A stretch of DNA of 64,000 bases, taken from the NCBI GenBank assembly GCA_043815185.1, contig JBDRJF010000024.1, positions 64,533-128,532 on the forward strand, given 5' to 3'. The stretch's first letter is position 1; the number at the start of each line of letters is the position of its first letter. Position numbers and translations under genes: made by a program. Source of the stretch: Candidatus Omnitrophota bacterium. GTDB lineage: Bacteria > Omnitrophota > Gorgyraeia > Duberdicusellales > 4484-171. The notes below the pieces were generated by a model. That model was not told the origin of the DNA. It searched no databases and was given only the letters and a program-made list of their open reading frames with translations. Below, piece after piece: positions 31,410 to 48,509 of the stretch.

Positions 31410-31410
31410 T

Positions 31411-32295
31411 TTAAAACAGCGTTGTGAAGTTCTTATAAATAATCTTTTCTTTTACCTCAAGACCAAATTCATCTAAGGCCTTAAGATTACTCTCTAGATC
31501 AGCATTAACTGGATAGTCCGAGCCCCAAAGAATATGGTCTTGGCCAAATAAATCTAAAGCCAATTTAATATTGCCGAAAGATGCCCCGGATGTATCTACA
31601 TATACTTCTTGTAAAATCTGAGAAGGCAACCTGCCTAAATCTTTGACTATCTCTCTTTTACGTAACATTGTATAAACTCGATCAAACCTATCCTTCAAGA
31701 AAGGAACAACCCCGCCTAAAGATGCCAGAAGAAACTTGACCTTAAACTTATCCAGCACCCCCTGCATCATCAGAAGCCCTAGAAAAATAGAGGTATCAAA
31801 ACTATATTCTAAGACCGGCGTAAGCAAGGGGTCTTTTACGCGACTATAGCCAATAGGATTAATTGTTTGCGAATGAACAAAGATTGGTAAGTTGTGCTTT
31901 TCGGCTGCTTCAAATAAGGGGAAAAGTTTATCAACTATAAACTTGCCACTATAACTTGAAGCCAGATTTATTGCTCGAAACCCTCTGTTCTTTAATTCAG
32001 CTAACTCTGAGGAGATATTGTTTAAGTTCTCTACATCAACCAGACAAGTTGCAATTATCTTGGAATTCTCCTTTAAAATCTTCTCTAATTCCCTATTGTA
32101 AATTTCACTGACCCTTTTAAAGCCACCTAATTTAAGGTGAGCATCAGTAGAAGGATAAACCAAAAGAGCCTTATCAATGTTGTTACTATCTAAGAACTCA
32201 TAAAGCTTATCCTTATTGGCCCATATGCCCTTATAAAAGGTAGTGTGCTCTGAGAGCTCCTGGGGGATAAAATGAATATGGCTATCGCATAGCAT
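31411..32295 (-). CDS. amidohydrolase-2 (metal-dependent hydrolase/decarboxylase) family protein
   Basis: 294 aa with an N-terminal DSHIH metal motif and TIM-barrel-like length. No SD seen. Confidence 0.7.
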   Translation of the reverse strand: MLCDSHIHFIPQELSEHTTFYKGIWANKDKLYEFLDSNNIDKALLVYPSTDAHLKLGGFKRVSEIYNRELEKILKENSKIIATCLVDVENLNNISSELAELKNRGFRAINLASSYSGKFIVDKLFPLFEAAEKHNLPIFVHSQTINPIGYSRVKDPLLTPVLEYSFDTSIFLGLLMMQGVLDKFKVKFLLASLGGVVPFLKDRFDRVYTMLRKREIVKDLGRLPSQILQEVYVDTSGASFGNIKLALDLFGQDHILWGSDYPVNADLESNLKALDEFGLEVKEKIIYKNFTTLF

Positions 32296-32421
32296 AGTTT
32301 TAAAAAATTCGAAATTCTAAATCCGAAGCACGAAACAAACTCGAAATCCTAATTTTCAAAATATTAATTTCTCTATTGATGTTTCTTTTTTCGAATTTCG
32401 ATATTCGGATTTCGTATTTAT
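32296..32421 (-). other. 126-nt intercistronic spacer packed with CGAAAT/ATTTCG motifs
   Basis: About eight copies of (T)TCGAAAT / CGGATTTCG-type words in both orientations. Complementary blocks occur in X-Y...X'-Y' order. Confidence 0.4.
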
Positions 32422-33882
32422 CTATATGTGCTTTTCTCCCTTAACAGCACCTTCTTCCCATTTGCTTACCCCGCGCATTACGTCTTGAAAGCATAATTTT
32501 GCTAAAGGGTCAAAGTTACTAGTCATAATTCTCTGGATTCGCCCGGGTTTTGAGAAGAACTCTCGCATGCACCAAGCGCCTAATCTTCCGTAATCCTCCA
32601 AGGTGAGATGTTCTGTGGCCATTACCGGGTGTAAGAAATCCCACTTAAGAAAATCTATTTTTTTAGGATCAATCTCACCCTTCTTTATCCTCTGCCTCCA
32701 AATTGGAGAGTTCGGCGCCGGAGTAACATAGCCTACCCACAAAATATCCGGGTCAACCTGATCAGTAAATTCAAATCTCTGCTTTATGATAGCTTCGGTA
32801 TCATCATCAAAACCCATCATAATATCAGCAACAATAGCAATATTGTTCTTTCGCAAGATTTCAATGGTCTTTTTTATCTGTTCGATGGTTATTCCTTTAG
32901 CAATCTTCTTTAACTCTGAAGCAGTAGTAACTTCTATACCGAATACGCCGGTAAATAACCCGGACTCTTTCATCAAAGGCAGAATTTCCTCACAATTGGT
33001 CCAATCAATTGCCCGGCCTAAGGAAACCCACTTAATCGGGTTCTTTTTCTCCAGCTTCATCCGGCAGAATTTCTCTACCCGCTTAGGATCAACATTAAAA
33101 TTATCATCCTGGATTACTACTACCTTTACTCCGTATTCACGATAAAGTAATTCTAACTCCTCAATTACCCTCTCCGGAGATTTCGCCCGCCACTTTAGGA
33201 AATCCTCAGGATGCCGGGGGTCATATTGATCCCACTCATAACAAAAGGTGCAAGCCGAAGGGCAACCCCGGGAAGTTACCATTTCAACAAACGGCTTCCA
33301 ATGAGTGTGACCGACATACTTGTCCATGGGGAATAAATTATAAGCCGGAAGCGGTAATTTATCTAAATCTCTATTGAGGGCCCGGTGGGGGCCCATAACA
33401 GCTTTACCGTCTATACGCGAACTTACCCCGGCAATATCTCTGATGTCTTTTAATTGATCGATAGCTTCAATCAAATCATAGAATGCCTCCTCCTCGCCCA
33501 TAACTACATAGTCAATTGCCGGGTTACTCTCTAAAGTAAAAACTGGCATTGAAGAATACCACAAGCCCCCGACGATTATCTTTGTATTAGGAAGAGCTTG
33601 TTTTATTAATTTTGCCGCTTGATTAAAATAATGAAGAATAGCAAAGCCTCCGTAAGAGTGAAGAATATCACCGATAGTAACCACATCGGGATTCTTTTCT
33701 TTTACCTTGGCAACCAGCTCATCCATCTCTATCTCTAAGGCCTTACAATCTAAGACTTCTAATTCTTTATAACCCTTTTCGCGAATGTAGGCTGCCCATT
33801 GAGCATAAAGCTGATTGGGCCCAAGGTGTTTACCATGAGTTGCCCAAGCTCCCAACTTTGGCGTCACAAACAAAACTTTCAT
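32422..33882 (-). CDS. B12-binding domain radical SAM protein (class B)
   Basis: 486 aa with an N-terminal Rossmann-like B12-binding region and the CxxxCxxC motif CPSACTFC. Confidence 0.85.
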   Translation of the reverse strand: MKVLFVTPKLGAWATHGKHLGPNQLYAQWAAYIREKGYKELEVLDCKALEIEMDELVAKVKEKNPDVVTIGDILHSYGGFAILHYFNQAAKLIKQALPNTKIIVGGLWYSSMPVFTLESNPAIDYVVMGEEEAFYDLIEAIDQLKDIRDIAGVSSRIDGKAVMGPHRALNRDLDKLPLPAYNLFPMDKYVGHTHWKPFVEMVTSRGCPSACTFCYEWDQYDPRHPEDFLKWRAKSPERVIEELELLYREYGVKVVVIQDDNFNVDPKRVEKFCRMKLEKKNPIKWVSLGRAIDWTNCEEILPLMKESGLFTGVFGIEVTTASELKKIAKGITIEQIKKTIEILRKNNIAIVADIMMGFDDDTEAIIKQRFEFTDQVDPDILWVGYVTPAPNSPIWRQRIKKGEIDPKKIDFLKWDFLHPVMATEHLTLEDYGRLGAWCMREFFSKPGRIQRIMTSNFDPLAKLCFQDVMRGVSKWEEGAVKGEKHI

Positions 33883-33912
33883 TATCCTATCCTCCTTGCC
33901 TAAATTATTAAA

Positions 33913-34707
33913 CTATTTTTTGGGATGATCTTGTTGAAACGGTATAACCGGCTTTTTCCAAGGTGTTTGCTGATTTATTACTGCCAATTCTAAAAGGCAA
34001 GTATTTTTGCTCTGGGTAAGAGCAAATAAAACTGCATCAGCTACTGCCTCAGGATCCATTAATCTTCCCTGCTCTTCTGATATATCCTTTAACTTACCAG
34101 TTAAGGGAGTTTTGGTCACTCCCGGGAATATGGAAGTAATTTTAATCCCAAAATCCCGCATCTCCCAAAATAATCCCTTAGCAAAAGCTCGTAAAGCCAC
34201 TTTCAACGAAGTATAAACTATAAAATTCCGCGGTGGAGGGTCAACCATAACTGAACCACTGGTAATATTTACAATCTGTCCTCCTCCGGCTTCCTTCATC
34301 GGGTTGACAACCAGACGGGCGAGCATAACATAGCTGTAGTAATTTGTATAGATGATTTTCTCAACATCCTCTACCGGCTGTTGCCAAAAAGGGTGTTGGC
34401 TGGAAACACCGGCTCCATTAACCAAAATATCGATTCTTTTAAACTTCTCTAAGGTTTTGTTGACTAAATTCTCTAAATCCTTCTGTTTAGTGACATCACA
34501 CTTAAGGCAAAGCACTTTATCCTTATCAGGAAGCGTTTCTTTTAACTCCTGAAGAACTTCTTCTCTTCGGGCAGCCAGAATCAACTTAGCGCCCTCCCCG
34601 GCCAATTTCTTAACTACACTCTTGCCGATTCCGCCGCTTGCCCCGGTTATAACGCATACTTTACCTTCTAACTTAGCCATAGCTCTCCTTTTTAATAAAT
34701 CTATCAC
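33913..34707 (-). CDS. short-chain dehydrogenase/reductase
   Basis: 264 aa with TGASGGIG cofactor motif and YTSLK (YxxxK) catalytic motif. Confidence 0.88.
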   Translation of the reverse strand: MIDLLKRRAMAKLEGKVCVITGASGGIGKSVVKKLAGEGAKLILAARREEVLQELKETLPDKDKVLCLKCDVTKQKDLENLVNKTLEKFKRIDILVNGAGVSSQHPFWQQPVEDVEKIIYTNYYSYVMLARLVVNPMKEAGGGQIVNITSGSVMVDPPPRNFIVYTSLKVALRAFAKGLFWEMRDFGIKITSIFPGVTKTPLTGKLKDISEEQGRLMDPEAVADAVLFALTQSKNTCLLELAVINQQTPWKKPVIPFQQDHPKK

Positions 34708-34721
34708 TAAAAATTAATTCC

Positions 34722-36215
34722 TCACTGTCCAGCATCTTGAGCCCTAATTATGTTTTTGATCTCATTCCGGGACAAAGCAATCGTTCCCCAGGATTTTCCT
34801 GCCTGTACCTCTAAAACCACTTTTTCGTTGGTTTCCTTTAATATAATTCCCTCGATCATCCGTCCATTGTTCAAGTAAATTTTATCAAAAAAGGCGGTTC
34901 TTCCAGTTACTACAACAGCCATTTCCTTTAAACGGATGATATCTTTATCGATAAAACCTGATTGAGTGGACAGGGATTTTGCCTTAGTTAAAGCCGCCAA
35001 AGCTTTACTATTATCCCCGATTTCTTGTTCAATTTTAGCAAGAGTTAAATAAGCTTGCCGGAAGCGGGGATACCGCTTTATAACTTCTCCGATTATCTCT
35101 TTGGCCTTATTATGGTTACCGACCTTATTATAAGCATAAGCCATATCGTCAAGAATATTGACATCATCGGGATTAACCGTAAGCTTCCTGCGGCAATTTT
35201 CTATTTCCCGGTAATATTCTTCAGCCGCAGCTTCTGTTTTGCCTTGCTGAGCATAAATATCCCCTAAATCATTATGAATATGCGGGTATCCCGGCAGGCG
35301 CTCAAGTATTTTTTTATATTCTAATACCGCCTGATCAAGTAACCCGTTATCGCGATAAAGACTGGCCAAGCTGTAATGAATATTAAGATTATCGGGAGAA
35401 ATTTTCAAGGCTATTTTTAAATGGGCGATTGCTTCATCGTAACTTTCCATATTCATAAAGCTAAGGCCCACGCTATTATGAAGATAGCTATTGTCAAAGT
35501 CTATAAGCAACCCGGCCTTATATTGAGTAATGGCTTTTTGATAATCGCCTTTTTCATAATGGAGGTTACCCAAAAGTATCTGCGCCGGGAGAAAATCGGG
35601 TTTTAACCGTAAAGCTTCCTTTAGTGAGGTTTCAGCCTGAGAGTAATTCTCGTCAGCAATATAGAAATAGCCCAAAATATAATAAGGGTAGGCATTGTTT
35701 GGGTCGATTTCCAATGCCTTATTTAGTAAGGCATAAGCCTCTGCTGTGTCACCAGCTAGATATGCATCGGTTCCTTTATTTATACTCTCAAGCATATATC
35801 CCAGAGAAACTTCTTTATGTATCTTACTTATTGTTAGGTCAGCCGGGAACTTAATTTCCGCCCGCTTAAGTAGATTAAGTGCCTCGTCATACATCTGCCG
35901 GTCCAAATATATTTGACTAAGGGCAAGGTAGGGGCCAGCATTCTCAGGCCCAGCTTGGATTGAATTTTTATGCTCTTTGACCGCTATATCTTCTTTTTTT
36001 AATTTCGTGTAAGTATTAGCTAAATTGTAATAAGTGATGGAAGAAGGTTTGATTTTCAAGGATTTCTCAAAATAAGCTATTGCTTCCTTATATTGGTCAC
36101 GATTGAAATAGTCAAAGCCTTTGTTGTTGTAGAAAGCAGACAGTTTCGGCCGGCCGAAATATATTAAAACTGCTATTGAGGCAAAAAGAATTAACAGGTC
36201 GATTACTTTACGCAT
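34722..36215 (-). CDS. membrane-anchored TPR repeat protein
   Basis: 497 aa with an N-terminal TM helix and many 34-aa TPR-like repeats (A..Y/F..AL...P). Confidence 0.8.
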   Translation of the reverse strand: MRKVIDLLILFASIAVLIYFGRPKLSAFYNNKGFDYFNRDQYKEAIAYFEKSLKIKPSSITYYNLANTYTKLKKEDIAVKEHKNSIQAGPENAGPYLALSQIYLDRQMYDEALNLLKRAEIKFPADLTISKIHKEVSLGYMLESINKGTDAYLAGDTAEAYALLNKALEIDPNNAYPYYILGYFYIADENYSQAETSLKEALRLKPDFLPAQILLGNLHYEKGDYQKAITQYKAGLLIDFDNSYLHNSVGLSFMNMESYDEAIAHLKIALKISPDNLNIHYSLASLYRDNGLLDQAVLEYKKILERLPGYPHIHNDLGDIYAQQGKTEAAAEEYYREIENCRRKLTVNPDDVNILDDMAYAYNKVGNHNKAKEIIGEVIKRYPRFRQAYLTLAKIEQEIGDNSKALAALTKAKSLSTQSGFIDKDIIRLKEMAVVVTGRTAFFDKIYLNNGRMIEGIILKETNEKVVLEVQAGKSWGTIALSRNEIKNIIRAQDAGQ

Positions 36216-36237
36216 AATAAACTAATTATACCTTCAA

Positions 36238-37389
36238 TTAAGCTAAACTTTGTTGAACTACCCTTTTTAAATTAAACCCTAACAAAAAGACACCTAAACC
36301 CACGATAACAAATAAGGCTTTAAAGCCGGCTTGAGATACTAAGACTCCTCCTAAAAAAGCCCCGAGAGCTCCGAAACTAAAGCGTAAAGCACTATTTAGG
36401 CTGGAAGCATCGCGGAGAATCCGATCGGGAAACTGAGTAAGATGCGATGACAGGCCGACATGGGTTAAAGCCCAACCACAGCCCCATAAAGTTATTAGTA
36501 AAAAGATTGATTGATATTTTTGTATAAAGATAAGAAAAAAAGCAAAGATGCTCATCAAGATAAACCCAATACTGCTTATCCTGATGTTACCGAAGCGGGA
36601 ACTTAAAAACCCTCCCATGAATTCAAATATTATTGCGCTTAAAGTAGCTACGGTAAAAATTGAACTTATAACTACCTGATTTAAAGAAAAACTCTCACTT
36701 AAATATATGCCCAGCCGCTGCTGCAGGCTATGGTAGAGGAAACTACCAAGCATAATCACCAGAAAAAAATTAATTGCTTTTTTATCTTTTAAAGTATCAA
36801 AATAACTTATCCTAAGCTTTTCTACCCGGAAGTCAAAATCATCTAAGTGAGTCATTACCAGGATAAACACCAGAAGGCTTAAACTAGCCGGTATCAGATA
36901 AAGTAGCAGGGGAAAACTGGCGAAGAATCCACTCAAAAAAACACTGATTAAGTTTGAAAGATAGGAAAGAGTGAAAAATATCCCAATATACTTTGATTTA
37001 TCCTGGGTTGAGATAACCTTACCTATAGTAATAAGCACCAGGGGTACGAAGCTGCAGCCAAAACAACCCATTAAAAATCTAAATAGGAAAGCTTCGGTGA
37101 TACTCCTGGAAAGCGAAAAAAATAAAGCTGTCAGAAAGAACCCCAGAGTTGTAAAAAGAAGTAACTTTCTTACCTTAACTACCCGGGTAAAGGGGGCCCA
37201 GATAAGGGCAAATACTCCGTAAGGAAGCATATAGAGCCAGGTGAGCGGCAAGGCCGCGCTCTTAGCTATCCCAAAATAGATTGCGATTGATGGTATTAAA
37301 GCAGCCATAGCCGCAACACCAAAAGAAACTGCAAAAAACATCAAACAGAAGATATAGAAACTTAACTTAGGCATTAGCCTCCTGCTCAA
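36238..37389 (-). CDS. MFS transporter
   Basis: 383 aa with about 12 hydrophobic spans. Confidence 0.8.
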   Translation of the reverse strand: MSRRLMPKLSFYIFCLMFFAVSFGVAAMAALIPSIAIYFGIAKSAALPLTWLYMLPYGVFALIWAPFTRVVKVRKLLLFTTLGFFLTALFFSLSRSITEAFLFRFLMGCFGCSFVPLVLITIGKVISTQDKSKYIGIFFTLSYLSNLISVFLSGFFASFPLLLYLIPASLSLLVFILVMTHLDDFDFRVEKLRISYFDTLKDKKAINFFLVIMLGSFLYHSLQQRLGIYLSESFSLNQVVISSIFTVATLSAIIFEFMGGFLSSRFGNIRISSIGFILMSIFAFFLIFIQKYQSIFLLITLWGCGWALTHVGLSSHLTQFPDRILRDASSLNSALRFSFGALGAFLGGVLVSQAGFKALFVIVGLGVFLLGFNLKRVVQQSLA

Positions 37390-37804
37390 TTATCTCCTTA
37401 AATAGCTTTAAGTTATCCTGGGAGTGTTTATTTATTAACTCCTCAACTTGAGAATCAACATATTTAGCCTGGCTATCCATCTTAAAGTCCTGAATCCAGG
37501 TCATCTCAACACCAGCGGTAACTTCACGGTAGAGCCAGATAATCTTCATATACTCAAAAGGAAACATCGGCTCTAACCTACAAGCATAAGCAAATTTATC
37601 TTCCTTAAACAGCAGGCGATAGGACTTCCAGCTATTCCCGTTCTTATGGGTGAGTTGAAAAATAATCTTATTACCTTGGGTCTCCAAAACATCGGATGCG
37701 GTATATTCTTCAAATAGTTCCTTCCAGCGCGAAATATCATTGCTAATATCAAAAATCAACTCAAAAGGTGCATTAATCACAATCGAGTTTACTGTATGTG
37801 CCAT
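37367..37804 (-). CDS. SRPBCC-superfamily protein (polyketide cyclase/aromatase-like)
   Basis: 145 aa. Starts MAHTVNSIVINAPFELIFDISNDISRW, typical of the polyketide_cyc2/START-like fold. Confidence 0.7.
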   Translation of the reverse strand: MAHTVNSIVINAPFELIFDISNDISRWKELFEEYTASDVLETQGNKIIFQLTHKNGNSWKSYRLLFKEDKFAYACRLEPMFPFEYMKIIWLYREVTAGVEMTWIQDFKMDSQAKYVDSQVEELINKHSQDNLKLFKEIIEQEANA

Positions 37805-37825
37805 AACTACCCCCTTTTTTTAAAA

Positions 37826-38623
37826 TTACAAAACTGCTACTACCCTGGCCCAGGCAGCACCGGTCTTCTTTATTCTTACTGGGAAACAAATAACCTTAAA
37901 TCCCCAATCCGGCAGCTTAGCCAAATTAGCTAATCTCTCAATATGGATAAACTCCCGCTTTCGGCCATGAAAATGGGCCGGCCAAAGGTGTTTAGGGTCT
38001 TTTGTTTTCAAAAAATCCCCAATCATAAATTTATAAGGCCGGTCAATACCCATAGTATCTACTCCCAATATCTTTACCCCCCGATCAAGAAGGTAGTCAA
38101 TTGCTGAAGGGTCTACTCCCGGATAATCAGAAAAATACTCAGGGCTTCCGAAAAGACGATCTGAACCGGTATAAAAAAGAACGATATCCCAAGGCTTGAG
38201 CAAATAATCAATCTTTTTCAAGGCTTCTTCGATGTCTTGACTTGTAATGACCTGATCAGCTCCTTTGTAACTAAAGTCAAGTTTGACTGCGTCTTGATAA
38301 CACCACTCCAGAGGGATTTCATCGGCCGTCTTCGATGGTTTACCTTCAGATTTACTTCCGTAGTGAAAAGAATAGTCAAGATGAGTTCCGCTATGAACCG
38401 AAGAATGCACTATCTCTAAAGATAAAAACTCTTGATCAGGCAAATCCTCCTTCCTGATTATCCGTTGCCCCAGAAAATACTTAATCTTACCCTTAAAAGT
38501 TTTACCCATCAAAACTCTATTTAACTTGGCAACTCCCTCCTGATGAGACACCCGTTCGATCTTTAAATCATGGACCTCAAAAGCTTTATCATCAATCAAT
38601 AAGCTTAAATCTACTATCTTCAT
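37826..38623 (-). CDS. cyclase-family protein (PF04199-like, kynurenine formamidase/polyketide cyclase fold)
   Basis: 265 aa with an HxGTHxD motif (HSGTHLD). Confidence 0.7.
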   Translation of the reverse strand: MKIVDLSLLIDDKAFEVHDLKIERVSHQEGVAKLNRVLMGKTFKGKIKYFLGQRIIRKEDLPDQEFLSLEIVHSSVHSGTHLDYSFHYGSKSEGKPSKTADEIPLEWCYQDAVKLDFSYKGADQVITSQDIEEALKKIDYLLKPWDIVLFYTGSDRLFGSPEYFSDYPGVDPSAIDYLLDRGVKILGVDTMGIDRPYKFMIGDFLKTKDPKHLWPAHFHGRKREFIHIERLANLAKLPDWGFKVICFPVRIKKTGAAWARVVAVL

Positions 38624-38641
38624 GGTTCTGCTGGTTAATAC

Positions 38642-38890
38642 TTAGCTTAGGCTACCCTCTTTCTTGTTAATTACCTCAACAATCTCATTAAGGGTAGAGA
38701 ATTTTGTAATCTCATTAGTTTCAAGCTTAATACCAAAGCGCTTATTAAAAGCGACTACTAACTCTACCATCTCGGTTGAGTCAACTCCGATAGAGTCATA
38801 TAATTTCTGGCCTTCTTTTATCTCGCTTTCTTCTATATCCAAAGTCTTGCTTATGATTCCAAGGACCTCTTCCTTCAACTCCATAAACAC
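38642..38890 (-). CDS. acyl carrier protein
   Basis: 82 aa with the phosphopantetheine attachment motif GVDSTEMVEL. Confidence 0.88.
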   Translation of the reverse strand: MFMELKEEVLGIISKTLDIEESEIKEGQKLYDSIGVDSTEMVELVVAFNKRFGIKLETNEITKFSTLNEIVEVINKKEGSLS

Positions 38891-38893
38891 CTC

Positions 38894-40129
38894 CTATTCT
38901 TTCTCAATAGCCAAAACAACATTTATCCCGCCCCGCCCTCTGGCAATAATCAAAGCTTTGGTAATTTCTTTCTCTTTCAGTTTATTGGGAGTATAGTCTA
39001 AATCACAATAAAGGTCTCTCATCTCCTGGTTAATCGTCGGCAGAACGATTGAGTATTTCATTGAAAAAAGTGTAACAATTAAATCTAAAGCGCTCTGGGC
39101 CCCGAGAAGATTTCCGTACATGCTCTTAGGCGCACTGAGAACAATTTTGTTTATTTGCTTCCCAAATACATTTTTTAAAGCTGATGTTTCAAGATAATCC
39201 CCGATTACAGTTGCCTCACCATCTAAACAGATATAATCTATGTCTGGCTTATTCCAAGAAGCATCCTTTAGGCATTCCTCTATTGCGTATTCTAACTCCT
39301 CTGATTTAGGACTGTATCTTGAATAGTGTTGTCCGTCGGAAGAGAAACCAATTCCTTTTATAAATCCATAAATCGGCACACCTCTTTTTTTGGCCTTAGA
39401 TTCTTTCTCCAAAATAACTACTCCTGAGCCCTCGCCTAAAACAAAACCATCCCGGTTTAAATCATAAGGTTTGTATGCTGTTTTAGGATTAAGATTATTT
39501 TTTGATAAACTACCGCAAGTATTTGCACTCAATAGAGCATAAGGAGTAATCGGGGCTTCCATGCCTCCGGCTAATACGAAATCATTTTTATCCTGAGCTA
39601 TTATTTTAGAACCATACCATAAACTCAAGGCTGAAGAAGCCTTATCGGCAACAATAGTTTTGCTATAACCTTTGAAGCCGTAATATATAGTAATTTGGCC
39701 CTGGGGAGCTGCCGGAAACCAGGCTGAAGCCATATAAGGGGAAATACCTTCTCTTCCCTCTAGATACATATCTCTTAGCTCAGTCTCAGCAAAGAGCCAG
39801 CCGCCAATAGCATTGCCCATAAATACGCCGACTCGATCTTTATCGATTTTTTCCAAATCCATTCCGGCATCTTCTATGGCTTGTTCTGAGGCAACTAGAG
39901 CCATATGAGAAAACACATCTATTTTCTTAACTAACCTTCCTGAAACATGTGAGTAGTGATCAAGCTCATGGACTTGGCCGGCAATCCGAGAAGGATAAAG
40001 GCTAGCGTCAAACCTCTTGATTTCATCGACAAAAGATGCGCATTTTTTAAGGTTAGCCCAAAAGGTTTCTTTTTTTAATCCACAAGGTGAAACTACGCCG
40101 ACACCGGTTATTGCAACTCTCGGCCCCAT
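38894..40129 (-). CDS. ketosynthase beta / chain-length-factor-like (no active-site Cys)
   Basis: 411 aa, colinear with the adjacent KS, but with Lys at the Cys column (IVADKASSALS) and Asp at the second His column (ICLDGEAT). Confidence 0.75.
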   Translation of the reverse strand: MGPRVAITGVGVVSPCGLKKETFWANLKKCASFVDEIKRFDASLYPSRIAGQVHELDHYSHVSGRLVKKIDVFSHMALVASEQAIEDAGMDLEKIDKDRVGVFMGNAIGGWLFAETELRDMYLEGREGISPYMASAWFPAAPQGQITIYYGFKGYSKTIVADKASSALSLWYGSKIIAQDKNDFVLAGGMEAPITPYALLSANTCGSLSKNNLNPKTAYKPYDLNRDGFVLGEGSGVVILEKESKAKKRGVPIYGFIKGIGFSSDGQHYSRYSPKSEELEYAIEECLKDASWNKPDIDYICLDGEATVIGDYLETSALKNVFGKQINKIVLSAPKSMYGNLLGAQSALDLIVTLFSMKYSIVLPTINQEMRDLYCDLDYTPNKLKEKEITKALIIARGRGGINVVLAIEKE

Positions 40130-40132
40130 TAA

Positions 40133-41380
40133 TTACCTCCACTTCTTAAATACAATCGAAGAATGGATTCCCGAAAATCCACTGCTGGTCTTAAGTATAT
40201 ACTCCGGCATTAATTTCCTCTTTTTATTGGGAATATAATCTAAATCACACTTAGGATCAGGCTCTTCCTGGTTAATCGTCGGTGGAAGATATCCTTTTTC
40301 AAAAATCATACAACATAATACACTCTCTACAGCATTAGCAGCAGCTAAAGGATGGCCGATCATCGATTTAATCGAGCTTATCGGCACCTTATAAGCAAAA
40401 TCTCCTAAAACTTTTTTGTAAGCGTCAGTTTCAAAGACATCATTCTGCCGGGTCGATGAGCCGTGAGCATTTATATAACCAATATCCTCATTCTTTATCC
40501 CTGAATTCTTTATTGCTTCCCGTATAGAACGAGCCATCGGTTCACCGTCTTCAGGCAAATCAGTCATATGATAGGCATTACAACTTGTCCCATAACCAAG
40601 AATTTCAGCATAAATATGGGAGCCTCTCTTCTTAGCATGTTCTAACTCTTCCAATATAAGGATTCCAGCTGCCTCACTAATAACAAAACCATTCCGCTTG
40701 TTATCAAAAGGACGGCTGGCCTTATGAGGTTCCTGGTTATTCTTGGCTAAAACGCTTACCACGTCAAAAGCTCCGAAGGTAATCGGGGTAACCGGAGCTT
40801 CATTGGCTCCGGCAATAATTAGGTCCTGCCTTCCTTCCTGAATAAGCTCATAAGCAAAACCTAAAGAATCAGTTCCGGCAGTGCAACCGGTTGAGACTGT
40901 ACAATTCATTCCCTTGGTCCCATAAATAGCCCCTACCTCTGCGCTGGGAGTATTAAACATAGCAGCATCATAAAGATAAGGCCTTCCCTTCCGGGGATCA
41001 ATCGGGCTCTTACCCCAATCAGTGACTAATAAAAATTCTTCTTCCATAAAACGGGTCCCGCAAATAGCATTGGCTAAGATTACACCACATCTGCGGCGGT
41101 CCAACTTATTAAAATCTAATTTTGCATCTTCCACCGCTCCCTTAGCAGCGGCAATCCCGAATTGAACATACCGATCCATACGTTTATGGTCAGTTATACC
41201 AAACTTTAAAGGGTCGAAATTCAAATCTTGGGAAGCAATCTTTGAAAGGAATAAACTTACATCAAAGTTCTCAACCCTTTCAATACAAGATTTACCCTCA
41301 ATTAGATTGTTGTAAAATTCATTCTTATCTTCTCCGGCTGCGCAGATAACTCCAATTCCAGTAATCACCACTCTCTTCAC
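40133..41380 (-). CDS. ketosynthase alpha, type II PKS-like
   Basis: 415 aa with a GTG start after a GAGGAGG SD. Motifs VSTGCTAGTDS (Cys), CNAYHMT and INAHGSSTRQNDVFET (His/His). Confidence 0.8.
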   Translation of the reverse strand: MKRVVITGIGVICAAGEDKNEFYNNLIEGKSCIERVENFDVSLFLSKIASQDLNFDPLKFGITDHKRMDRYVQFGIAAAKGAVEDAKLDFNKLDRRRCGVILANAICGTRFMEEEFLLVTDWGKSPIDPRKGRPYLYDAAMFNTPSAEVGAIYGTKGMNCTVSTGCTAGTDSLGFAYELIQEGRQDLIIAGANEAPVTPITFGAFDVVSVLAKNNQEPHKASRPFDNKRNGFVISEAAGILILEELEHAKKRGSHIYAEILGYGTSCNAYHMTDLPEDGEPMARSIREAIKNSGIKNEDIGYINAHGSSTRQNDVFETDAYKKVLGDFAYKVPISSIKSMIGHPLAAANAVESVLCCMIFEKGYLPPTINQEEPDPKCDLDYIPNKKRKLMPEYILKTSSGFSGIHSSIVFKKWR

Positions 41381-41388
41381 TTCTCTTT

Positions 41389-41556
41389 CCTCCTCAATGA
41401 TCCGCCTTAGGCGGAGAATTGATCCCGACGAGCGTTACAAAATTGTCGAAGAGAATTTTGTAACATCTTCTGCCCTCTGGAATTTTCCACTGGAAAATTC
41501 CGAGGACTCAGTCCCTGAAATTTCAGCATGTGAAATTTCTAGGGGCGAGTCGGGAT
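41389..41556 (-). repeat. structured intercistronic element, repeat family R2 copy B
   Basis: Outer stem ATCCCGAC/GTCGGGAT (41422..29 with 41549..56) enclosing hairpins at 41434..41464, 41474..41505 and 41513..41544, plus a hairpin at 41401..41415 and CCTCCTCAATGA (41389..41400). Confidence 0.7.
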
Positions 41557-41562
41557 ATATTA

Positions 41563-42168
41563 TTAATCTTTCCTAGCAACTTTAAATACAATGTTCCCGC
41601 CATCCGGGCAGGTTACCGTATCTATAGAATTCTGATTATCCATAAACTGAAATTTTGCTCCAAAATTTAGGGCAAAGAGGGCTGGGAAAGCTGTGTGCCA
41701 GGCTGCTCCGCAGAATCCAGGAATACACTTAAGGCCTTCAATATCCCATTTATCACCAACCTGATACTTATAAAAACACTTAGGCGAAGCCATCCCTTTA
41801 GGGGTACCCTTAGCTTTAATAACCTCAATAACCATCCTCTTGGGGTTCGGGCCCTTATAGTTATGATCTTTAGGAATATTATCGATCTCACCCTGCTTAT
41901 TAAAAATTTCGGCCTTAAACTCTAGTTTCCCGCCATCGGGACAAGTTACTAACAATGACCTTTGATTATCCATAAAAGGGAATTTTGCTCCAAAACTTAA
42001 AGCGTAAATTACCGGAAATAAAGCATGGGCCAGGCCTAAGCAAAAGTGCTTGGGCGGATGGGTAAAATCCTCTAAAATTAATTCATCACCGGCCTTATAG
42101 CCATGGTAACAATCTCCATAAACATTAAGCACTGTTAATTTTAATTTTGGGAAAGGTGTTTTAACCAT
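41563..42168 (-). CDS. tandem-duplicated TIGR04076-like protein
   Basis: 201 aa. The two halves share FC..A....FP...AL.FGAKF.FMDNQ......TCPDGG...FK. The family call is from memory of the CPDG-containing TIGR04076 pattern. Confidence 0.5.
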   Translation of the reverse strand: MVKTPFPKLKLTVLNVYGDCYHGYKAGDELILEDFTHPPKHFCLGLAHALFPVIYALSFGAKFPFMDNQRSLLVTCPDGGKLEFKAEIFNKQGEIDNIPKDHNYKGPNPKRMVIEVIKAKGTPKGMASPKCFYKYQVGDKWDIEGLKCIPGFCGAAWHTAFPALFALNFGAKFQFMDNQNSIDTVTCPDGGNIVFKVARKD

Positions 42169-42169
42169 A

Positions 42170-43165
42170 TCAGATCTCCATTTCTTTTAATAATTCTCCC
42201 TTTTCAAAAAACTTTTTTGACTCCTCTACTCTATGAACTAATTCAACTATTTTACTATTTAGCCGGGCCTTAAGATTATTTTCAGAAGCTATTCTTACAA
42301 TTTCTCCGTTGATATAATCAATCTCTGAAGGCTTACCACTCTTTATGCTTTGTAATATTGAACCGTAGAGAGGTTCTTGGCTTAAAGAGGCCATTACTTT
42401 TGAAAAAATACCGGCAGCTTGTTCTATGTCCATTGAAACTAATCCCTCTAATCTGGCCTTAGGATAACTAGGCAAATCAGCTAACTCTATGCCGCTATTT
42501 TTAACAACATTGAATGCCTCTTTATTTAGTTTTATTGCCAGTTTTGCGAAATTTATATCAGCAAAGGCCTCCTGCATCGATAAACCTAAAATTGCCGGAA
42601 TACAATTATTGAGATTAATCAATAGCTTAAGGTATTTAGCCCCTTTTATTTTGTCTAAAACTGCTAGATCAAAAGCCGATTTTAAAAGGCCGGCTACCTC
42701 CTCTATATTGGCTACTTCTTGCTCAAAGATATTCCCTAATATTAAGTTACCTTTAAAATTATGAACTATTCTGTTCGGCCGGTAAAAAGTTGCTCCAAAC
42801 ATCACAATACCGGTTATAATCTTCTCTTTAGGAAAATACTCACTCAATATATAATCAGCTCTTATTCCGTTCTGAGTACTAAGAATAGTCGCATCTTTTA
42901 AATATTTTAAATTTTCCTTTATTAAAGCCTCTAAATCACCTAACTTGCTGGCGAGAATAGCCAGGCCTACTCTCGCTCCAAGTTTATTATCAACTCTTAC
43001 CTTATAGGTATCTTTACCTCTTGAGCCCTCAATGAGTAAACCCTTCTTAAGTAAAGGCTCCTTCTGGTAATCCTTAACTATACCAATAACATCAATATTC
43101 GCTCCGGAGAGATAGCCTAAAAATAATCCGCCAATTGCTCCACAACCTAAAACTGCTACTTTCAT
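42170..43165 (-). CDS. 2-dehydropantoate 2-reductase (PanE/ApbA) family oxidoreductase
   Basis: The Rossmann N-terminus MKVAVLGCGAIGG sets the start at 43165; the tracked start at 43204 adds 13 unlikely residues. Confidence 0.75.
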   Translation of the reverse strand: MKVAVLGCGAIGGLFLGYLSGANIDVIGIVKDYQKEPLLKKGLLIEGSRGKDTYKVRVDNKLGARVGLAILASKLGDLEALIKENLKYLKDATILSTQNGIRADYILSEYFPKEKIITGIVMFGATFYRPNRIVHNFKGNLILGNIFEQEVANIEEVAGLLKSAFDLAVLDKIKGAKYLKLLINLNNCIPAILGLSMQEAFADINFAKLAIKLNKEAFNVVKNSGIELADLPSYPKARLEGLVSMDIEQAAGIFSKVMASLSQEPLYGSILQSIKSGKPSEIDYINGEIVRIASENNLKARLNSKIVELVHRVEESKKFFEKGELLKEMEI

Positions 43166-43169
43166 TTTT

Positions 43170-43448
43170 CTACTTCTCTTGACTAATATATTGTGAATAA
43201 TCAATATTTAATTGGCTAAGTAGCCTCACAAGCATACCTTTGAAGGCCGGAGGAACCTCCTGGAAGAAGGCAACAATTAAATCTTTATCCTCAACTTCTT
43301 TAGAATCTCTTGCCTTAGCTAACTGTTCAGACTTTTGCTTAATAAGTTGCTCAGCAATTGTTCTATGAAATTGCGGTAAATTCTCAATTATCCGATCAAA
43401 CTTACTCTTGGTTTCTCGGTTCCAGTTAACTTCCATAATACCTTCCAC
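43170..43448 (-). CDS. small helical protein, PCP_red-like (protochlorophyllide reductase B C-terminal-like) domain
   Basis: 92 aa. The W-x2-E...LPQFHR...E..A pattern resembles PF08369. Tentative. Confidence 0.35.
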   Translation of the reverse strand: MEGIMEVNWNRETKSKFDRIIENLPQFHRTIAEQLIKQKSEQLAKARDSKEVEDKDLIVAFFQEVPPAFKGMLVRLLSQLNIDYSQYISQEK

Positions 43449-43454
43449 TCCTTC

Positions 43455-44189
43455 TTATAATTTATCAACAACACCGAATGCTAAATCAGCCATTTTCATC
43501 TCAGCCTCAAAGAATCTATAGTCGGCAAACCCTAATCTTCCGGTAATAAGGTTATCAGATACTGCTAAAACAGCTGCGGCCTTTCTCTTATAAATATTGG
43601 CTACAGTTACAAACGGTGAAGTTACCATATCCACGGCAATCGCACCTTTCTCAATATAAGGATTAACTATCTCTTTAGTCTCTCTAAATAAAGCATCGGT
43701 TGTCCACACTCCTCCGCGATGTAAGGTGCCAGCATTTTTAAAAACCGCTTCTATCTTCGATGTCAATTGGTTATCTACCTTAGATACATAATTATCATCT
43801 ACGTAGTACTTAGTTGCCCCGTCTCCCCGGATAATATCAGTAGCTAAGATGTAATCTCCGACATTTATATCTTCTCTCAAGGCTCCGCAAGAACCAAGCC
43901 TGACCAAAGTATTGATCCCGCCGACACATAAAAACTCAGTAACAAAGGCTGAATCAGGAGCATAAAATCCGCCATTACCAACAGTTACTTTTCTGCCTTT
44001 GTAAAAGCCGGTCCAAAAAGTATAGCCAAGAAAGGTAAAATTCTTTACTGAATTCTCTAATCTCTCTAAACACATCTTTGCCCTGTGCTGCTGGCCGCTG
44101 ACTAAAGCAATTTCGCCAAAATCACCATCTTTAAACTGCAAAGAGTAAAGAAGCTCTTTGGGGCTTAGATGAAGCTCTCTCTGCATCAT
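43455..44189 (-). CDS. PNP/UDP-1 family nucleoside phosphorylase
   Basis: 244 aa with a family pattern (LVRLGSCGAL..., AVDMVTS). Confidence 0.7.
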   Translation of the reverse strand: MMQRELHLSPKELLYSLQFKDGDFGEIALVSGQQHRAKMCLERLENSVKNFTFLGYTFWTGFYKGRKVTVGNGGFYAPDSAFVTEFLCVGGINTLVRLGSCGALREDINVGDYILATDIIRGDGATKYYVDDNYVSKVDNQLTSKIEAVFKNAGTLHRGGVWTTDALFRETKEIVNPYIEKGAIAVDMVTSPFVTVANIYKRKAAAVLAVSDNLITGRLGFADYRFFEAEMKMADLAFGVVDKL

Positions 44190-44191
44190 AG

Positions 44192-45703
44192 CTAAGCTCC
44201 TCCTTTAACTAATTTTTGCTTATCAATTTTGCCAGTTCTATTCTTAGGTAAATCTTCTACAAATTCAAAGTGATGGGGAACTTTAAAGTGAGCTATCCGT
44301 TCTTTTAAGAAGTCCTTTATCTCGTCCGCATCTAAGCTCGCCTGCTGCCGGGTGACGATAAATGCTTTGGGTACCTCACCGCGCAAATTATCAGCTACAC
44401 CAATAATCGCAACCTCTTTTACTTTGGGATGTTCTTGTATTTTCTCTTCCACTTCAGCCGGAGAAACTATCTCCCCTGCCACTTTAATCATATCTTTTTT
44501 TCTTCCTACTATATAATACAGACCCTCCTGGTCTTGTTTAACGATATCGCCGGTCTTAAGCCAGCGGTCTTGGGTCAACACCTCTTGGGTTAGGGCCGGT
44601 TCTTTAAAGTAGCCGCGCATTATCGCCTCACCCTTAACCCATAACTCTCCTTTTTTTCCCCTGCTTACACTTTCTCCAGCTTCATTGACAATCTTAGCTT
44701 CCATCTTAGAGTCAAAAGAACCGATACTGGAAATCTTGGCTTCATCAGGCGGTGAAAAAGTATTGGGGGCTGCTGTTTCAGTCATTCCCCAGCCATTTAA
44801 AACTACTGCATTAGGGCATAGTTTATGAAATCGCTCCAGAAGCAGCGGCGATGAAGGAGCACCAAAGACAACCGCAAACCGTAGCGAAGAAAGGTCAAAC
44901 TTCTCATATTCTTTTAAACCGAGAATCGCCACATACATTGCCGGAACAATGCAGAATATAGTAACTTTATGCCGCTCTATATTCCTTAAGAACTCTAAAG
45001 GATGAAATCTCTCCATAAGGATAAGGGGAGAGGAGAAATAAATCATCAGGAGTATATAACCTAAGCCTCCGATATGGGAAAATGGCACACCGCCGCATAA
45101 AAACCGATCTTCTCCAGATATACCTAAGAAGCGGTCGATAGTTTTCGGAGAATTATCTAAGTGCCGGAATTCTAAGCTTACTCCCTTGGGATGACCGGTA
45201 GAGCCGGAAGTATAAAATATCGAACAAAGGCCGCGCTCATTGTGTTTTAAGCTAATTTCATCAGAATTTCCTTGAGTTAAGGCTGAATCCCAGGTTGAAA
45301 AACTCTCCGAATTCTCTAGGCAGACGATTATTTCTTTTAAACTTTTACACTTACTCTTAATGTTTAGCAGGTTTAATTCCTTCTTAGGGTGGATCACTAA
45401 AACTTTAGCCTGGCTGTGATTTATGAAATTAATAATTTCACTTTCAGTTAACATGAAATCCAAAGGTACTATTGCTGCCTGGGCGCTAAATACACCTAAG
45501 AAGGTAAACAGAGCCTCAAGGCCGTTAGGAAGAAACATGGCTACTTTATCTTCCTGCCTAATACCTAAACTGAGAAGATAATTAGCCAGCTTAAAAGAGG
45601 TTTCTTTAAGCTCGCGGAAGGTAACTGTCCTATCTTGAAATAATACTGCCTTCTTCTGAGGACAATTCTTGGCTTTGTCTTTGAGTAATTCCCCAATATT
45701 CAT
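44192..45703 (-). CDS. AMP-dependent synthetase/ligase (acyl-CoA or acyl-ACP ligase)
   Basis: 503 aa with YTSGSTGHPKGV (A3), GWGMTE and TGDIV motifs and a C-terminal lysine block (RTGKIDK). Confidence 0.9.
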   Translation of the reverse strand: MNIGELLKDKAKNCPQKKAVLFQDRTVTFRELKETSFKLANYLLSLGIRQEDKVAMFLPNGLEALFTFLGVFSAQAAIVPLDFMLTESEIINFINHSQAKVLVIHPKKELNLLNIKSKCKSLKEIIVCLENSESFSTWDSALTQGNSDEISLKHNERGLCSIFYTSGSTGHPKGVSLEFRHLDNSPKTIDRFLGISGEDRFLCGGVPFSHIGGLGYILLMIYFSSPLILMERFHPLEFLRNIERHKVTIFCIVPAMYVAILGLKEYEKFDLSSLRFAVVFGAPSSPLLLERFHKLCPNAVVLNGWGMTETAAPNTFSPPDEAKISSIGSFDSKMEAKIVNEAGESVSRGKKGELWVKGEAIMRGYFKEPALTQEVLTQDRWLKTGDIVKQDQEGLYYIVGRKKDMIKVAGEIVSPAEVEEKIQEHPKVKEVAIIGVADNLRGEVPKAFIVTRQQASLDADEIKDFLKERIAHFKVPHHFEFVEDLPKNRTGKIDKQKLVKGGA

Positions 45704-47885: not shown

Positions 47886-48509
47886 ATGAAAAGAACTTAC
47901 GTTTACATTGACGGGTTTAATTTATACTACCGCGCTATTAAAAATACCCCTTATAAATGGCTTGATTTAAAAGTTCTTTGCCAAAAGCTTCTTACTAAAG
48001 ATCATAGAATTGATGCACTTAAATATTTTACTGCAATCGTATCGGGTAAAAAAGACTCCCAAAAACCTATCCGACAACAGACTTATATTAGAGCGCTTGA
48101 GAAATATAACCCAGAAGTATCTGTATACTACGGCCAATTTCGTAGCCATAGGCAAAAAGCACTTCTTGCTTACCCAACTAAAAAAAAGAAATTTGAATAC
48201 ATCATTAAAACGGAAGAGAAAGGTTCTGATGTCAATCTTGCTGTACATCTTTTAAATGATGGCTGGCTTAATAAATATGACTGTGCGGTGCTAATTTCAA
48301 ATGATAGCGACCTTGCAGAGGCAATAAATCTTGTTAAAAAAGAACATAGCAAGTTAATAGGTTTGCTTCTACCTACGAATTGTTACCCGTCAAAAGAATT
48401 AATGCCTTTGGTTGATTTTGTTAAAACTATAAGAAAAGGTGTGCTGGCGATATCACAGTTGCCAAATTTGATACCAGGAACAAAAATACATAAGCCAATA
48501 ACATGGTAA
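47886..48509 (+). CDS. NYN (LabA/PIN-like) domain protein, predicted ribonuclease
   Basis: 207 aa with acidic motifs YIDGFNLYY, EKGSDVNLA and SNDSDL in the NYN order. Confidence 0.75.
   Translation: MKRTYVYIDGFNLYYRAIKNTPYKWLDLKVLCQKLLTKDHRIDALKYFTAIVSGKKDSQKPIRQQTYIRALEKYNPEVSVYYGQFRSHRQKALLAYPTKKKKFEYIIKTEEKGSDVNLAVHLLNDGWLNKYDCAVLISNDSDLAEAINLVKKEHSKLIGLLLPTNCYPSKELMPLVDFVKTIRKGVLAISQLPNLIPGTKIHKPITW

Follow-up and report, generated by a model that had tools for sequence, protein, structure and literature searches.

A putative aromatic type II polyketide synthase with a lysine-type chain-length factor at the centre of an operon inherited across Candidatus Omnitrophota

The polyketide synthase core

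The window analysed here, a 64,000-nucleotide stretch of a Candidatus Omnitrophota contig, carries at 37367-41380 five consecutive open reading frames (ORFs) resembling the core of an aromatic type II polyketide synthase (PKS). These five genes form the middle of a larger operon (27968-45703, about 17 genes) that is inherited across Candidatus Omnitrophota. They had previously been singled out by a reading of the letters without database searches (the sequence-only reading). Listed from the ketosynthase gene onwards, they are:

40133-41380, minus strand: KS-alpha, condensing ketosynthase (KS); 415 aa, GTG start; Pfam ketoacyl-synt N and C domains
38894-40129, minus strand: chain-length factor (CLF), a non-condensing KS-beta; 411 aa; Lys163 in the Cys/Gln column
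38642-38890, minus strand: discrete acyl carrier protein (ACP); 82 aa; PP-binding, E 1.6e-11; NCBIfam ACP matches; GVDS serine motif
37826-38623, minus strand: PF04199 "cyclase family" metal-dependent protein, putative later-ring cyclase; 265 aa; Pfam E 2.4e-28
37367-37804, minus strand: mono-domain TcmN/WhiE-type aromatase/cyclase (ARO/CYC) of the SRPBCC fold; 145 aa; Polyketide_cyc2/Polyketide_cyc, E 4e-6/1e-5

Intergenic gaps in the ORF list are 3, 3, 18 and 21 nt, with the ACP gene starting 3 nt after the CLF gene. The ORF translations reproduced everything that had been reported of the five genes, namely their coordinates, gaps of 3-21 nt and the motifs VSTGCTAGTDS, CNAYHMT, INAHGSSTRQNDVFET, IVADKASSALS, ICLDGEAT, GVDSTEM and HSGTHLD, and the proposed domains were borne out by Pfam. 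The host is a metagenome-assembled genome (MAG) of Candidatus Omnitrophota with 39% GC, in agreement with the earlier description of a type II PKS core in an AT-rich, non-actinomycete genome. In the public record the KS (MFH1519780.1) and CLF (MFH1519779.1) lie on a 192-kb MAG contig, and both are annotated by NCBI only as "beta-ketoacyl-ACP synthase family protein".

Assignment of the ketosynthase

Pfam ketoacyl-synt N and C domains were matched by both the KS and the CLF with E-values from 1e-43 to 4e-24, far beyond chance. On alignment of the two proteins with MAFFT, KS residues C166/H271/H306/K338 fell opposite K163/H268/D303/K335 of the CLF. The KS has the complete condensing Cys-His-His triad (C166/H271/H306) and the conserved Lys (K338). 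The top solved relatives of the KS were AntD (6smo_B, 370 bits), the actinorhodin KS (1tqy_A, 353 bits) and Bacillus subtilis FabF (342 bits), with lower scores for the anammox heterodimer chains 9s5h_B/C (282/207 bits) and Iga11 (6kxd, 206 bits). Despite the small bit-score margin over FabF, the protein was assigned as a KS-alpha because it carries discrete characters of that class: a 5-residue insertion, T.QND after the second His, and SGFSGIHS, all of which are shared with AntD and KS-alpha proteins and are not found in FabF, FabB or CLFs.

The KS and the CLF were placed by neighbour-joining (300 bootstraps) in trees of 30 or 33 sequences. Solved structures, E. coli K-12, three plasmids and metagenomic relatives supplied the references, and the aryl-polyene proteins ApeO, ApeR and ApeC of E. 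coli CFT073 were added later. The window KS was placed in the KS-alpha clade with AntD and the actinorhodin KS at 100% bootstrap, or 89% once the three aryl-polyene sequences had been added. FabFs fell outside both the KS-alpha and the CLF clades, and ApeO, ApeR and ApeC branched elsewhere. The FabF model TIGR03150 gave 446 bits for the KS and 363 bits for the CLF, below its equivalog cutoff of 494. The original call of KS-alpha rather than FabF/FabB is thus supported by motifs, by the insertion and by 89-100% clade support.

Domain scans of the operon revealed neither a dehydratase nor an enoyl reductase. No FabD, FabH, malonyl-CoA:ACP acyltransferase (MCAT) or phosphopantetheinyl transferase (PPTase) was found among the window ORFs scanned, which did not include every ORF of the window. 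The possibility that these genes encode the organism's own fatty acid synthase was considered and rejected on the basis of clade placement, the presence of cyclases and the lack of a dehydratase and an enoyl reductase.

The chain-length factor and its Lys/Arg column

The adjacent paralog retains His268, has Asp303 in the second-His column and carries RGRGG instead of GFGG. In the HMMER alignment, K163 lies opposite the Gln of "VAEQAGG" in the actinorhodin CLF (1tqy_B); the active-site segment as a whole is closest to AntE (6smo_C). Two motifs, AWF(P/Y)A..QG and RGRGG, were confined to CLFs in the alignment, one of them from Streptomyces lavendulae (gene annotation "ketosynthase chain-length factor"), and with this S. 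lavendulae CLF the window paralog formed a clade at 100% bootstrap (91% with aryl-polyene KSs added). The alignments and the clade support of 91-100% agree with its earlier identification as a non-condensing KS-beta/CLF with Lys in the Cys column and Asp in the second-His column. Neither protein branched with FabF or the aryl-polyene KSs in the neighbour-joining trees, and the Cys/Lys column held in both MAFFT and HMMER alignments. A search of a representative library with the CLF was dominated by giant type I PKSs, owing to summed scores, and left about 12 usable single-domain relatives.

Variation in the Cys/Gln column was examined in two sets of homologues. The first put the window CLF together with the best 120 relatives in the database (72-92% identity, labelled Candidatus Omnitrophota or Omnitrophica). 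Lys stands in the column in 80 of these 121 sequences and Arg in 41; 113 retain the first His, and 120 have Asp in place of the second. The second set came from a GTDB scan with one genome per species, which returned 549 relatives with the CLF motif, the best 80 of which (57-92% identity) were kept. Among these 80 loci the column is Lys in 38 and Arg in 42, with Lys limited to the closer group (38 Lys, 11 Arg) and the distant group having Arg throughout (31). Arg or Lys was also seen in CLFs of unrelated metagenomic clusters and of a Bacillus bombysepticus plasmid, while the Streptomyces CLF has the Gln of canonical actinomycete CLFs. Where the flank was long enough, no AMP-ligase was found near R/K-type CLFs from these other sources. 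Lys or Arg is always paired with an acidic residue in the second-His column or, in two relatives, with a retained His. The substitution is clade-wide and probably structural, replacing a dead active site. A literature search on Lys or Arg in the Gln column of CLFs found nothing. In AntE, the same column is Asp (PMC6638757, Fig. S2 legend), with which our HMMER alignment agrees, and AntDEF together with its PPTase yields the octaketide shunt products SEK4/SEK4b (PMC6638757).

Carrier protein and cyclases

Downstream of the CLF gene, the sequence-only reading had placed an ACP, a PF04199-like cyclase and an SRPBCC aromatase-like protein, and all three were recovered by Pfam. The 145-aa ARO/CYC matched TcmN (2rez/3tvq) with E 6e-28 and WhiE ORFVI (3tvr) with E 8.5e-25. 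It keeps equivalents of nine TcmN pocket residues (W28, E34, Y35, W65, S67, R69, W95, Q110 and N136), which we take to be the ones that matter; the deposited mutant 2res carries its change in the R69 column. The substrates of TcmN- and WhiE-type cyclases are chains left unreduced at C-9. The PF04199 protein carries HSGTHLDYSFH, containing the metal motif HxGTHxD. It probably closes a further ring, as judged from its family annotation and the recurrent position of such genes beside KS/CLF pairs.

Extent and conservation of the operon

In the window, the core genes are accompanied by the following:

27968-29458, minus strand: NAD(P)-dependent aldehyde dehydrogenase; Aldedh 7e-163
29455-30462, minus strand: class II aldolase fused to an SCP2-like domain; Aldolase_II 1.6e-31 plus SCP2 5e-5
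30459-31409, minus strand: MtnA-like sugar-1-phosphate isomerase of the IF-2B family; IF-2B 1.4e-55
31411-32295, minus strand: Amidohydro_2 family protein, candidate aromatic-acid decarboxylase or hydrolase; PF04909 9e-18
32422-33882, minus strand: B12-binding radical S-adenosylmethionine (SAM) enzyme, BchE/HpnJ-like; B12-binding plus Radical_SAM
33913-34707, minus strand: short-chain dehydrogenase/reductase (SDR), candidate ketoreductase (KR) or tailoring reductase; adh_short 1.5e-47, KR 9e-14
34722-36215, minus strand: tetratricopeptide repeat (TPR) protein; TPR families
36238-37389, minus strand: major facilitator superfamily (MFS) transporter, putative exporter; MFS_1 4e-24
41563-42168, minus strand: tandem-duplicated TIGR04076 family protein; TIGR04076 2.7e-27, two matched stretches
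42170-43204, minus strand: ApbA/PanE-type NAD(P)H-dependent reductase; ApbA plus ApbA_C; TIGR00745 147.6 > 141.35
43170-43448, minus strand: small DUF2621 protein; PF11084 6e-8
43455-44189, minus strand: PNP_UDP_1 family nucleoside phosphorylase or nucleosidase; PF01048 2e-33
44192-45703, minus strand: acyl-AMP/CoA ligase; AMP-binding 1.3e-80; reaches no NCBIfam equivalog cutoff

The sequence-only reading had proposed the segment 37367-45703 for expression. The operon is much larger, extending to 27968; it also includes reductases and is kept throughout the phylum, neither of which that reading had noted. Its remark that no KR, MCAT or PPTase is directly adjacent to the core holds for the immediate flanks; within the operon there are the SDR with a KR match (33913-34707) and the ApbA reductase (42170-43204).

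To assess conservation, 22 window proteins were searched against loci with 10-kb flanks. Of these, 38 had full flanks, comprising 25 close loci (CLF at least 66% identical to that of the window) and 13 distant ones (57-62%). KS, CLF, ACP, PF04199 cyclase and ARO/CYC were present in all 38. The ApbA reductase was found in 24 of 25 close and 13 of 13 distant loci; MFS, SDR, radical SAM and DUF2621 proteins each in 23 of 25 and 13 of 13. Slightly lower counts were obtained for the Amidohydro_2 protein (23 of 25 and 12 of 13), the isomerase (22 of 25 and 12 of 13) and the phosphorylase (23 of 25 and 10 of 13). The AMP-ligase occurs in 23 of 25 close loci; in the distant group it was seen at the operon's 5' end in loci whose flank extends that far (L056 and L070, plus partial matches). 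The aldolase-SCP2 gene is present in 19 of 25 close loci, the others being cut by the flank, and in all 13 distant ones, and the full-length fusion was found in 41 of 45 loci. The aldehyde dehydrogenase is in 13 of 13 distant loci and in 10 of 25 close ones, in which the 10-kb flank only just reaches it. Two genes are less constant: TIGR04076 (25 of 25 close, 2 of 13 distant) and the TPR gene (2 of 25 and 0 of 13), the latter being probably a lineage-specific insertion that is not part of the pathway.

The two groups arrange these genes differently. The block of isomerase, aldolase, dehydrogenase and radical SAM genes lies downstream of the SDR gene in the group of the window, and upstream, between phosphorylase and DUF2621, in the distant group. 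A compact form of the operon was found on the complete 3.36-Mb chromosome OY759724.1 (L061), in the order phosphorylase, isomerase, aldolase-SCP2 (the same fusion), dehydrogenase, radical SAM, DUF2621, ApbA, KS, CLF, ACP, cyclase, ARO/CYC, MFS, SDR, Amidohydro_2. Because the gene set has been kept through rearrangement between two divergent groups, we infer that the operon genes work together. The operon is also present in a complete genome of 1.27 Mb.

The best 80 of the 549 GTDB relatives are almost all titled Omnitrophota, the closest named one being Candidatus Susulua stagnicola (91%). Some loci from third-party-annotation assemblies (L005, L008, L009, L014, L015 and others; 58-92% CLF identity) are titled "uncultured Planctomycetia/Planctomycetales/Victivallales", and given their synteny with Omnitrophota-labelled loci these look like coarse taxonomic labels. 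A 12.8-kb contig filed as "Methanosarcinales archaeon" (L010, JAIWAR010000044.1) holds the ligase-to-ARO/CYC part of the operon, and its CLF is 89% identical to that of the window; most likely it is Omnitrophota DNA that was mis-binned, and not an archaeal PKS.

A few differences in gene content were noted among individual loci. On the OY759724.1 chromosome, an unrelated 156-aa ORF with no Pfam match (L061 7091-7561) stands between DUF2621 and ApbA, TIGR04076 being mostly absent in the distant group, and 3' of the operon there are 4.6 kb with almost no ORF of at least 70 aa (L061 16622-21224), which may be an RNA operon or a non-coding stretch. Locus L001 has extra genes inside the operon (17065-17877 and 18779-19255), namely an Aminotran_4 gene and an additional short IF-2B-like ORF (about 160 aa). 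The latter also occurs in L061 (2013-2498), and the window has neither.

Other operon genes

The accompanying enzymes were compared with NCBIfam models and solved relatives. The isomerase scored above the TIGR00524 cutoff (196.8 > 185.85) and below the MtnA equivalog cutoffs. The phosphorylase was under every NCBIfam equivalog cutoff (DeoD 97 bits), and it and the aldolase were far under their salvage equivalog cutoffs. For the radical SAM enzyme, whose median identity in the close group is 80%, BchE (210 bits) and HpnJ (141 bits) were both under cutoff. Decarboxylation by the Amidohydro_2 protein may be anticipated from known members of its family. The SDR was examined as an ActIII-type C-9 ketoreductase, and this was rejected because its similarity is at the generic SDR/FabG level. 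The best solved relatives of the ligase were 4-coumarate-CoA ligase (222 bits), anthranilate-CoA ligase 4wv3 (196 bits) and malonyl-CoA synthetases (about 175 bits); neither these nor the NCBIfam models allow its substrate to be assigned by homology.

The TIGR04076 protein has an internal tandem duplication with repeated Cys/His-containing motifs. AlphaFold2 without an alignment gave an unusable model (mean pLDDT 49), and literature matches for the family are, by title and abstract, unrelated to polyketide synthesis. A PHROGs search with the two small proteins of unassigned function returned no matches.

Genomic setting

The operon is flanked by housekeeping genes (MetH, GltX, 2-oxoacid:ferredoxin oxidoreductase, Dxs, RNase Y, Obg, Era, TsaD and GatB), and GC content is uniform across the window (0.35-0.45). 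A recently acquired horizontal island was rejected, because GC is even, the neighbours are housekeeping genes and all operon genes diverge in parallel.

The minus strand carries nearly every gene of the window, and GC skew is negative in 32 of 32 bins; the sole sizeable plus-strand gene seen encodes a NYN-domain protein (47886-48509). An Rfam scan of the whole window gave one tRNA and no riboswitch. Promoter and terminator scans of the sequence gave counts no higher than in shuffled sequence; a promoter-like site scoring 10/12 just 5' of the ligase start was not counted as evidence. Just downstream of the operon, a DeoC/LacD-family protein (26984-27772, minus strand) scored 360 bits against the NCBIfam cutoff of 297 for the LsrF-type 3-hydroxy-5-phosphonooxypentane-2,4-dione thiolase, and adjoins a Zn-dependent alcohol dehydrogenase gene (25926-26954, minus strand). 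As the thiolase lies near the PKS in 2 of 25 loci, those of the closest relatives only, it was left out of the operon. Further away, 8134-10518 (minus strand) encodes a 794-aa methionine-synthase-like protein with S-methyl_trans, Pterin_bind, B12-binding_2 and B12-binding domains and no match for the C-terminal reactivation domain.

Comparison with known systems

The operon was compared with the ant cluster of Photorhabdus luminescens, which comprises AntD/AntE/AntF, the CoA-ligase AntG, the KR AntA, the ARO/CYC AntH and the cyclase AntC. AntD, the top solved relative of the window KS, is about 47% identical to it, with SGFSGIHS identical. Like the window CLF, AntE lacks the Gln, but it has Asp and not Lys/Arg; at 371 aa, it is also short and divergent in its C-terminal third, and it is absent from the 60 listed matches of the full-length CLF search. 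Both systems reside in a non-actinomycete host and include an acyl-CoA/AMP ligase, a reductase and two cyclases. Without AntG, 13-fold less product was formed, and AntG was proposed to load the ACP (PMC6638757). AntH is described as a tri-domain cyclase, whereas the window ARO/CYC is a 145-aa mono-domain protein of the TcmN type. The AntB PPTase and the AntI lyase have no homologue in the window; conversely, the ant cluster is without the radical SAM, sugar-phosphate shunt, ApbA and DUF2621 genes of the window operon.

Actinomycete PKSs share with the window the KS-alpha triad and motifs, the CLF motifs (AWF.A..GQ and RGRGG), Asp in the second-His column, and the KS-CLF-ACP order with 3-nt gaps or overlapping reading frames, and the ARO/CYC is a close homologue of the tetracenomycin (TcmN) and WhiE enzymes. 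The window differs from them in having Lys/Arg for Gln in the CLF, in retaining the first His in the close group, and in a KS identity of only about 40-43%. In contrast to actinomycete clusters, it lies in a host of 39% GC among housekeeping genes, and the conserved operon has no flavin or antibiotic-biosynthesis monooxygenase-type oxygenases, with a B12-radical-SAM enzyme instead.

The window PKS belongs to the largely unexplored non-actinobacterial KS/CLF clade of a 2023 catalogue, in which Candidatus Omnitrophica was among 14 phyla with KS-CLF matches and was not analysed further (PMC10132072). Beyond this catalogue, our literature search found nothing further on the Omnitrophota operon, and a word search of broad Omnitrophota genomics texts (PMC10066038 and a 2026 preprint) did not return the word "polyketide".

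Other examples of this clade are the metagenomic loci L003 and L085-L087 and the Bacillus bombysepticus plasmid NZ_CP085408.1, which have Arg or Lys in the CLF column, with PF04199 and 143-145-aa SRPBCC genes beside KS-CLF, and one R-type cluster unrelated to the window (L085) also has Amidohydro_2. These clusters carry oxygen-dependent tailoring genes (FAD oxidoreductase or monooxygenase, cupin, O-methyltransferases) and their own PPTase. The Omnitrophota set of ligase, phosphorylase, isomerase, aldolase, dehydrogenase and radical-SAM genes is missing from them, and they look sporadic and accessory, one being plasmid-borne, unlike the phylum-wide, syntenic Omnitrophota operon. The plasmid locus (L088, 83986-95271) is an uncharacterised type II PKS of the same CLF clade, with genes for a cupin, an O-methyltransferase, an FAD oxidoreductase, a PF04199 cyclase, a methyltransferase, KS, an Arg-type CLF, AcpS and ACP; metagenomic L087 has the same layout.

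Anammox ladderane FabF2/FabFmut (9S5H) and ApeO/ApeC form KS/CLF-like heterodimers outside the actinomycetes, as is predicted for the window pair. The ladderane cluster also has B12-radical-SAM enzymes. The anammox chains are less similar to the window proteins than AntD or FabF, and the aryl-polyene proteins branch elsewhere; both systems reduce the chain and are without aromatic cyclases.

Proposed function and alternatives

We consider it likely, from the sequence evidence above, that 37367-41380 encodes a working aromatic type II PKS core at the centre of the phylum-inherited operon. Membership of the aromatic PKSs is argued from the KS-alpha triad and clade, the Cys-less CLF, the ACP and the TcmN-type ARO/CYC, the canonical CLF Gln being the one feature examined that is absent. 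The module of KS, R/K-type CLF, PF04199 and SRPBCC proteins also recurs elsewhere in clusters with classic aromatic-polyketide tailoring genes. In the proposed pathway, the KS-alpha would perform every decarboxylative Claisen condensation on malonyl-ACP, the chain would be carried on the discrete ACP, and the CLF, with Lys163 and no nucleophile, would pair with the KS-alpha and only shape the product tunnel. The ARO/CYC would fold the poly-beta-ketone and aromatise the first ring, with the PF04199 protein probably closing another. The SDR, ApbA, B12-radical-SAM and Amidohydro_2 proteins could then provide oxygen-independent tailoring, by reduction, methylation or oxidative cyclisation, and decarboxylation, before export by the putative MFS exporter. 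Malonyl transfer and phosphopantetheinylation would be borrowed from primary metabolism. The AMP-ligase may be either an ACP loader, as proposed for AntG, with priming by KS-catalysed decarboxylation, or the activator of a primer acid, as with EncN and AuaEII.

Several points weigh against this assignment. The whole case rests on sequence. The tree is not maximum likelihood, and its reference set of 30 or 33 sequences is small and uncurated; AntE and the actinorhodin CLF were compared over an 80-residue segment only, and at full length the CLF scores FabF structures at 276 bits against 199 bits for the actinorhodin CLF. The solved relatives of the PF04199 protein are hydrolases only (isatin hydrolase, kynurenine formamidase) with weak E-values, and no solved PF04199 polyketide cyclase exists for comparison. 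The SDR is generic, there being no recognisable C-9 ketoreductase, and the window has no MCAT or PPTase among the ORFs scanned. For a specialised metabolite, such strong phylum-wide conservation, in genomes down to 1.27 Mb, is out of the ordinary, and the chemistry may be unlike that of textbook aromatic polyketides.

The most different alternative is that the two proteins form a FabF-derived heterodimer making a reduced lipid, by a highly reducing type II PKS of aryl-polyene-like or ladderane-like character, and that nothing aromatic is produced. Both proteins do match the FabF model strongly, the top full-length solved relatives of the CLF are FabFs, the operon resembles ladderane clusters in pairing a B12-radical-SAM enzyme with an SDR, and antiSMASH-type surveys report "ladderane" clusters in Omnitrophota MAGs. 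Against this, the KS and CLF fall in their own clades apart from FabFs and ApeO/ApeR/ApeC, the anammox and Iga11 chains score low against the KS, and the operon offers two polyketide cyclases, one of them a close TcmN relative, in place of a dehydratase and an enoyl reductase; we regard a reduced lipid as very improbable. A closer alternative leaves the PKS aromatic and concerns its priming. The sequence-only reading had taken the Lys together with the AMP-ligase as pointing to a non-acetate starter. In such a scheme, a Lys-CLF could not prime by malonyl decarboxylation, and the ligase would activate the acid and load it on the ACP or KS, as do EncN and AuaE/AuaEII. Conservation of the ligase within the operon, the established role (in a review) of the adenylating enzymes EncN and AuaEII as type II PKS primers, and the ability of the aldehyde dehydrogenase and the phosphorylase-isomerase-aldolase set to supply a carboxylic acid would all suit such a starter. 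Yet Lys-for-Gln by itself does not predict one, because Lys or Arg is normal in the clade, R/K-type CLFs elsewhere have no AMP-ligase in the sequenced neighbourhood, and AntDEF, with Asp in AntE, makes ordinary octaketides, AntG being proposed to load the ACP and not to provide an exotic primer. Moreover, the relatives of the ligase span aryl-CoA to malonyl-CoA ligases and so indicate no particular acid, and domain scans found no FabH/DpsC-type priming KS or editing acyltransferase. That part of the earlier reading is thus not upheld, and a non-acetate starter loaded in this way is in our view rather unlikely.

A separate question is whether the phosphorylase, isomerase, aldolase-SCP2 and dehydrogenase take part in polyketide formation or only salvage 5'-deoxyadenosine or methylthioadenosine, removing the toxic by-product of the neighbouring radical SAM enzyme with no chemical link to the polyketide. 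In the "DHAP (dihydroxyacetone phosphate) shunt", a nucleoside phosphorylase, an isomerase and a class II aldolase act in turn on 5'-deoxyadenosine/methylthioadenosine. The domain set of the operon fits this logic, the same operon holds a radical SAM enzyme that releases 5'-deoxyadenosine, and the genes beyond the operon are housekeeping. On the other side, the set stays with the PKS through rearrangement between groups only about 60% identical in CLF, the aldolase is fused to an SCP2-like lipid-binding domain that would be superfluous in a small-sugar enzyme, an aldehyde dehydrogenase and an acyl-AMP ligase would logically follow the aldolase product, and none of the phosphorylase, isomerase and aldolase attains a salvage equivalog cutoff. 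We judge the chances of simple salvage to be about even. More speculative, and in our estimate improbable, is a combined scheme in which the operon would make a core metabolite of the mostly anaerobic, small-genome Omnitrophota, for example a redox-active or protective aromatic compound, with a SAM-derived PKS primer and oxygen-independent tailoring. Here phosphorolysis and isomerisation of 5'-deoxyadenosine, methylthioadenosine or a radical-SAM adenosylated intermediate, followed by cleavage by the aldolase-SCP2 protein, would give an aldehyde. Oxidation would turn this into an acid for the AMP-ligase to load on the ACP, in replacement of the decarboxylative priming attributed to the CLF Gln. 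We know of no PKS with such a SAM-derived primer route.

Significance

To our knowledge, Omnitrophota have no cultured member. Retention of an aromatic-polyketide operon in a genome of 1.27 Mb suggests that the product matters to the cell, beyond occasional chemical warfare. The class of KS/CLF pair was already catalogued; what is new here is that a Lys/Arg-CLF aromatic PKS shares one operon, found throughout the phylum, with putative oxygen-independent tailoring enzymes and enzymes of sugar-phosphate shunt type. The Lys/Arg CLF clade lets the role of the CLF "active-site" residue be tested directly. Unlike those of Streptomyces, non-actinomycete KS/CLF pairs can yield soluble protein in E. 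coli (PMC6638757), and the Omnitrophota family offers well over a hundred natural variants for engineering. Both the oxygen-free tailoring proposed here and a primer derived from SAM would, if true, represent new chemistry.

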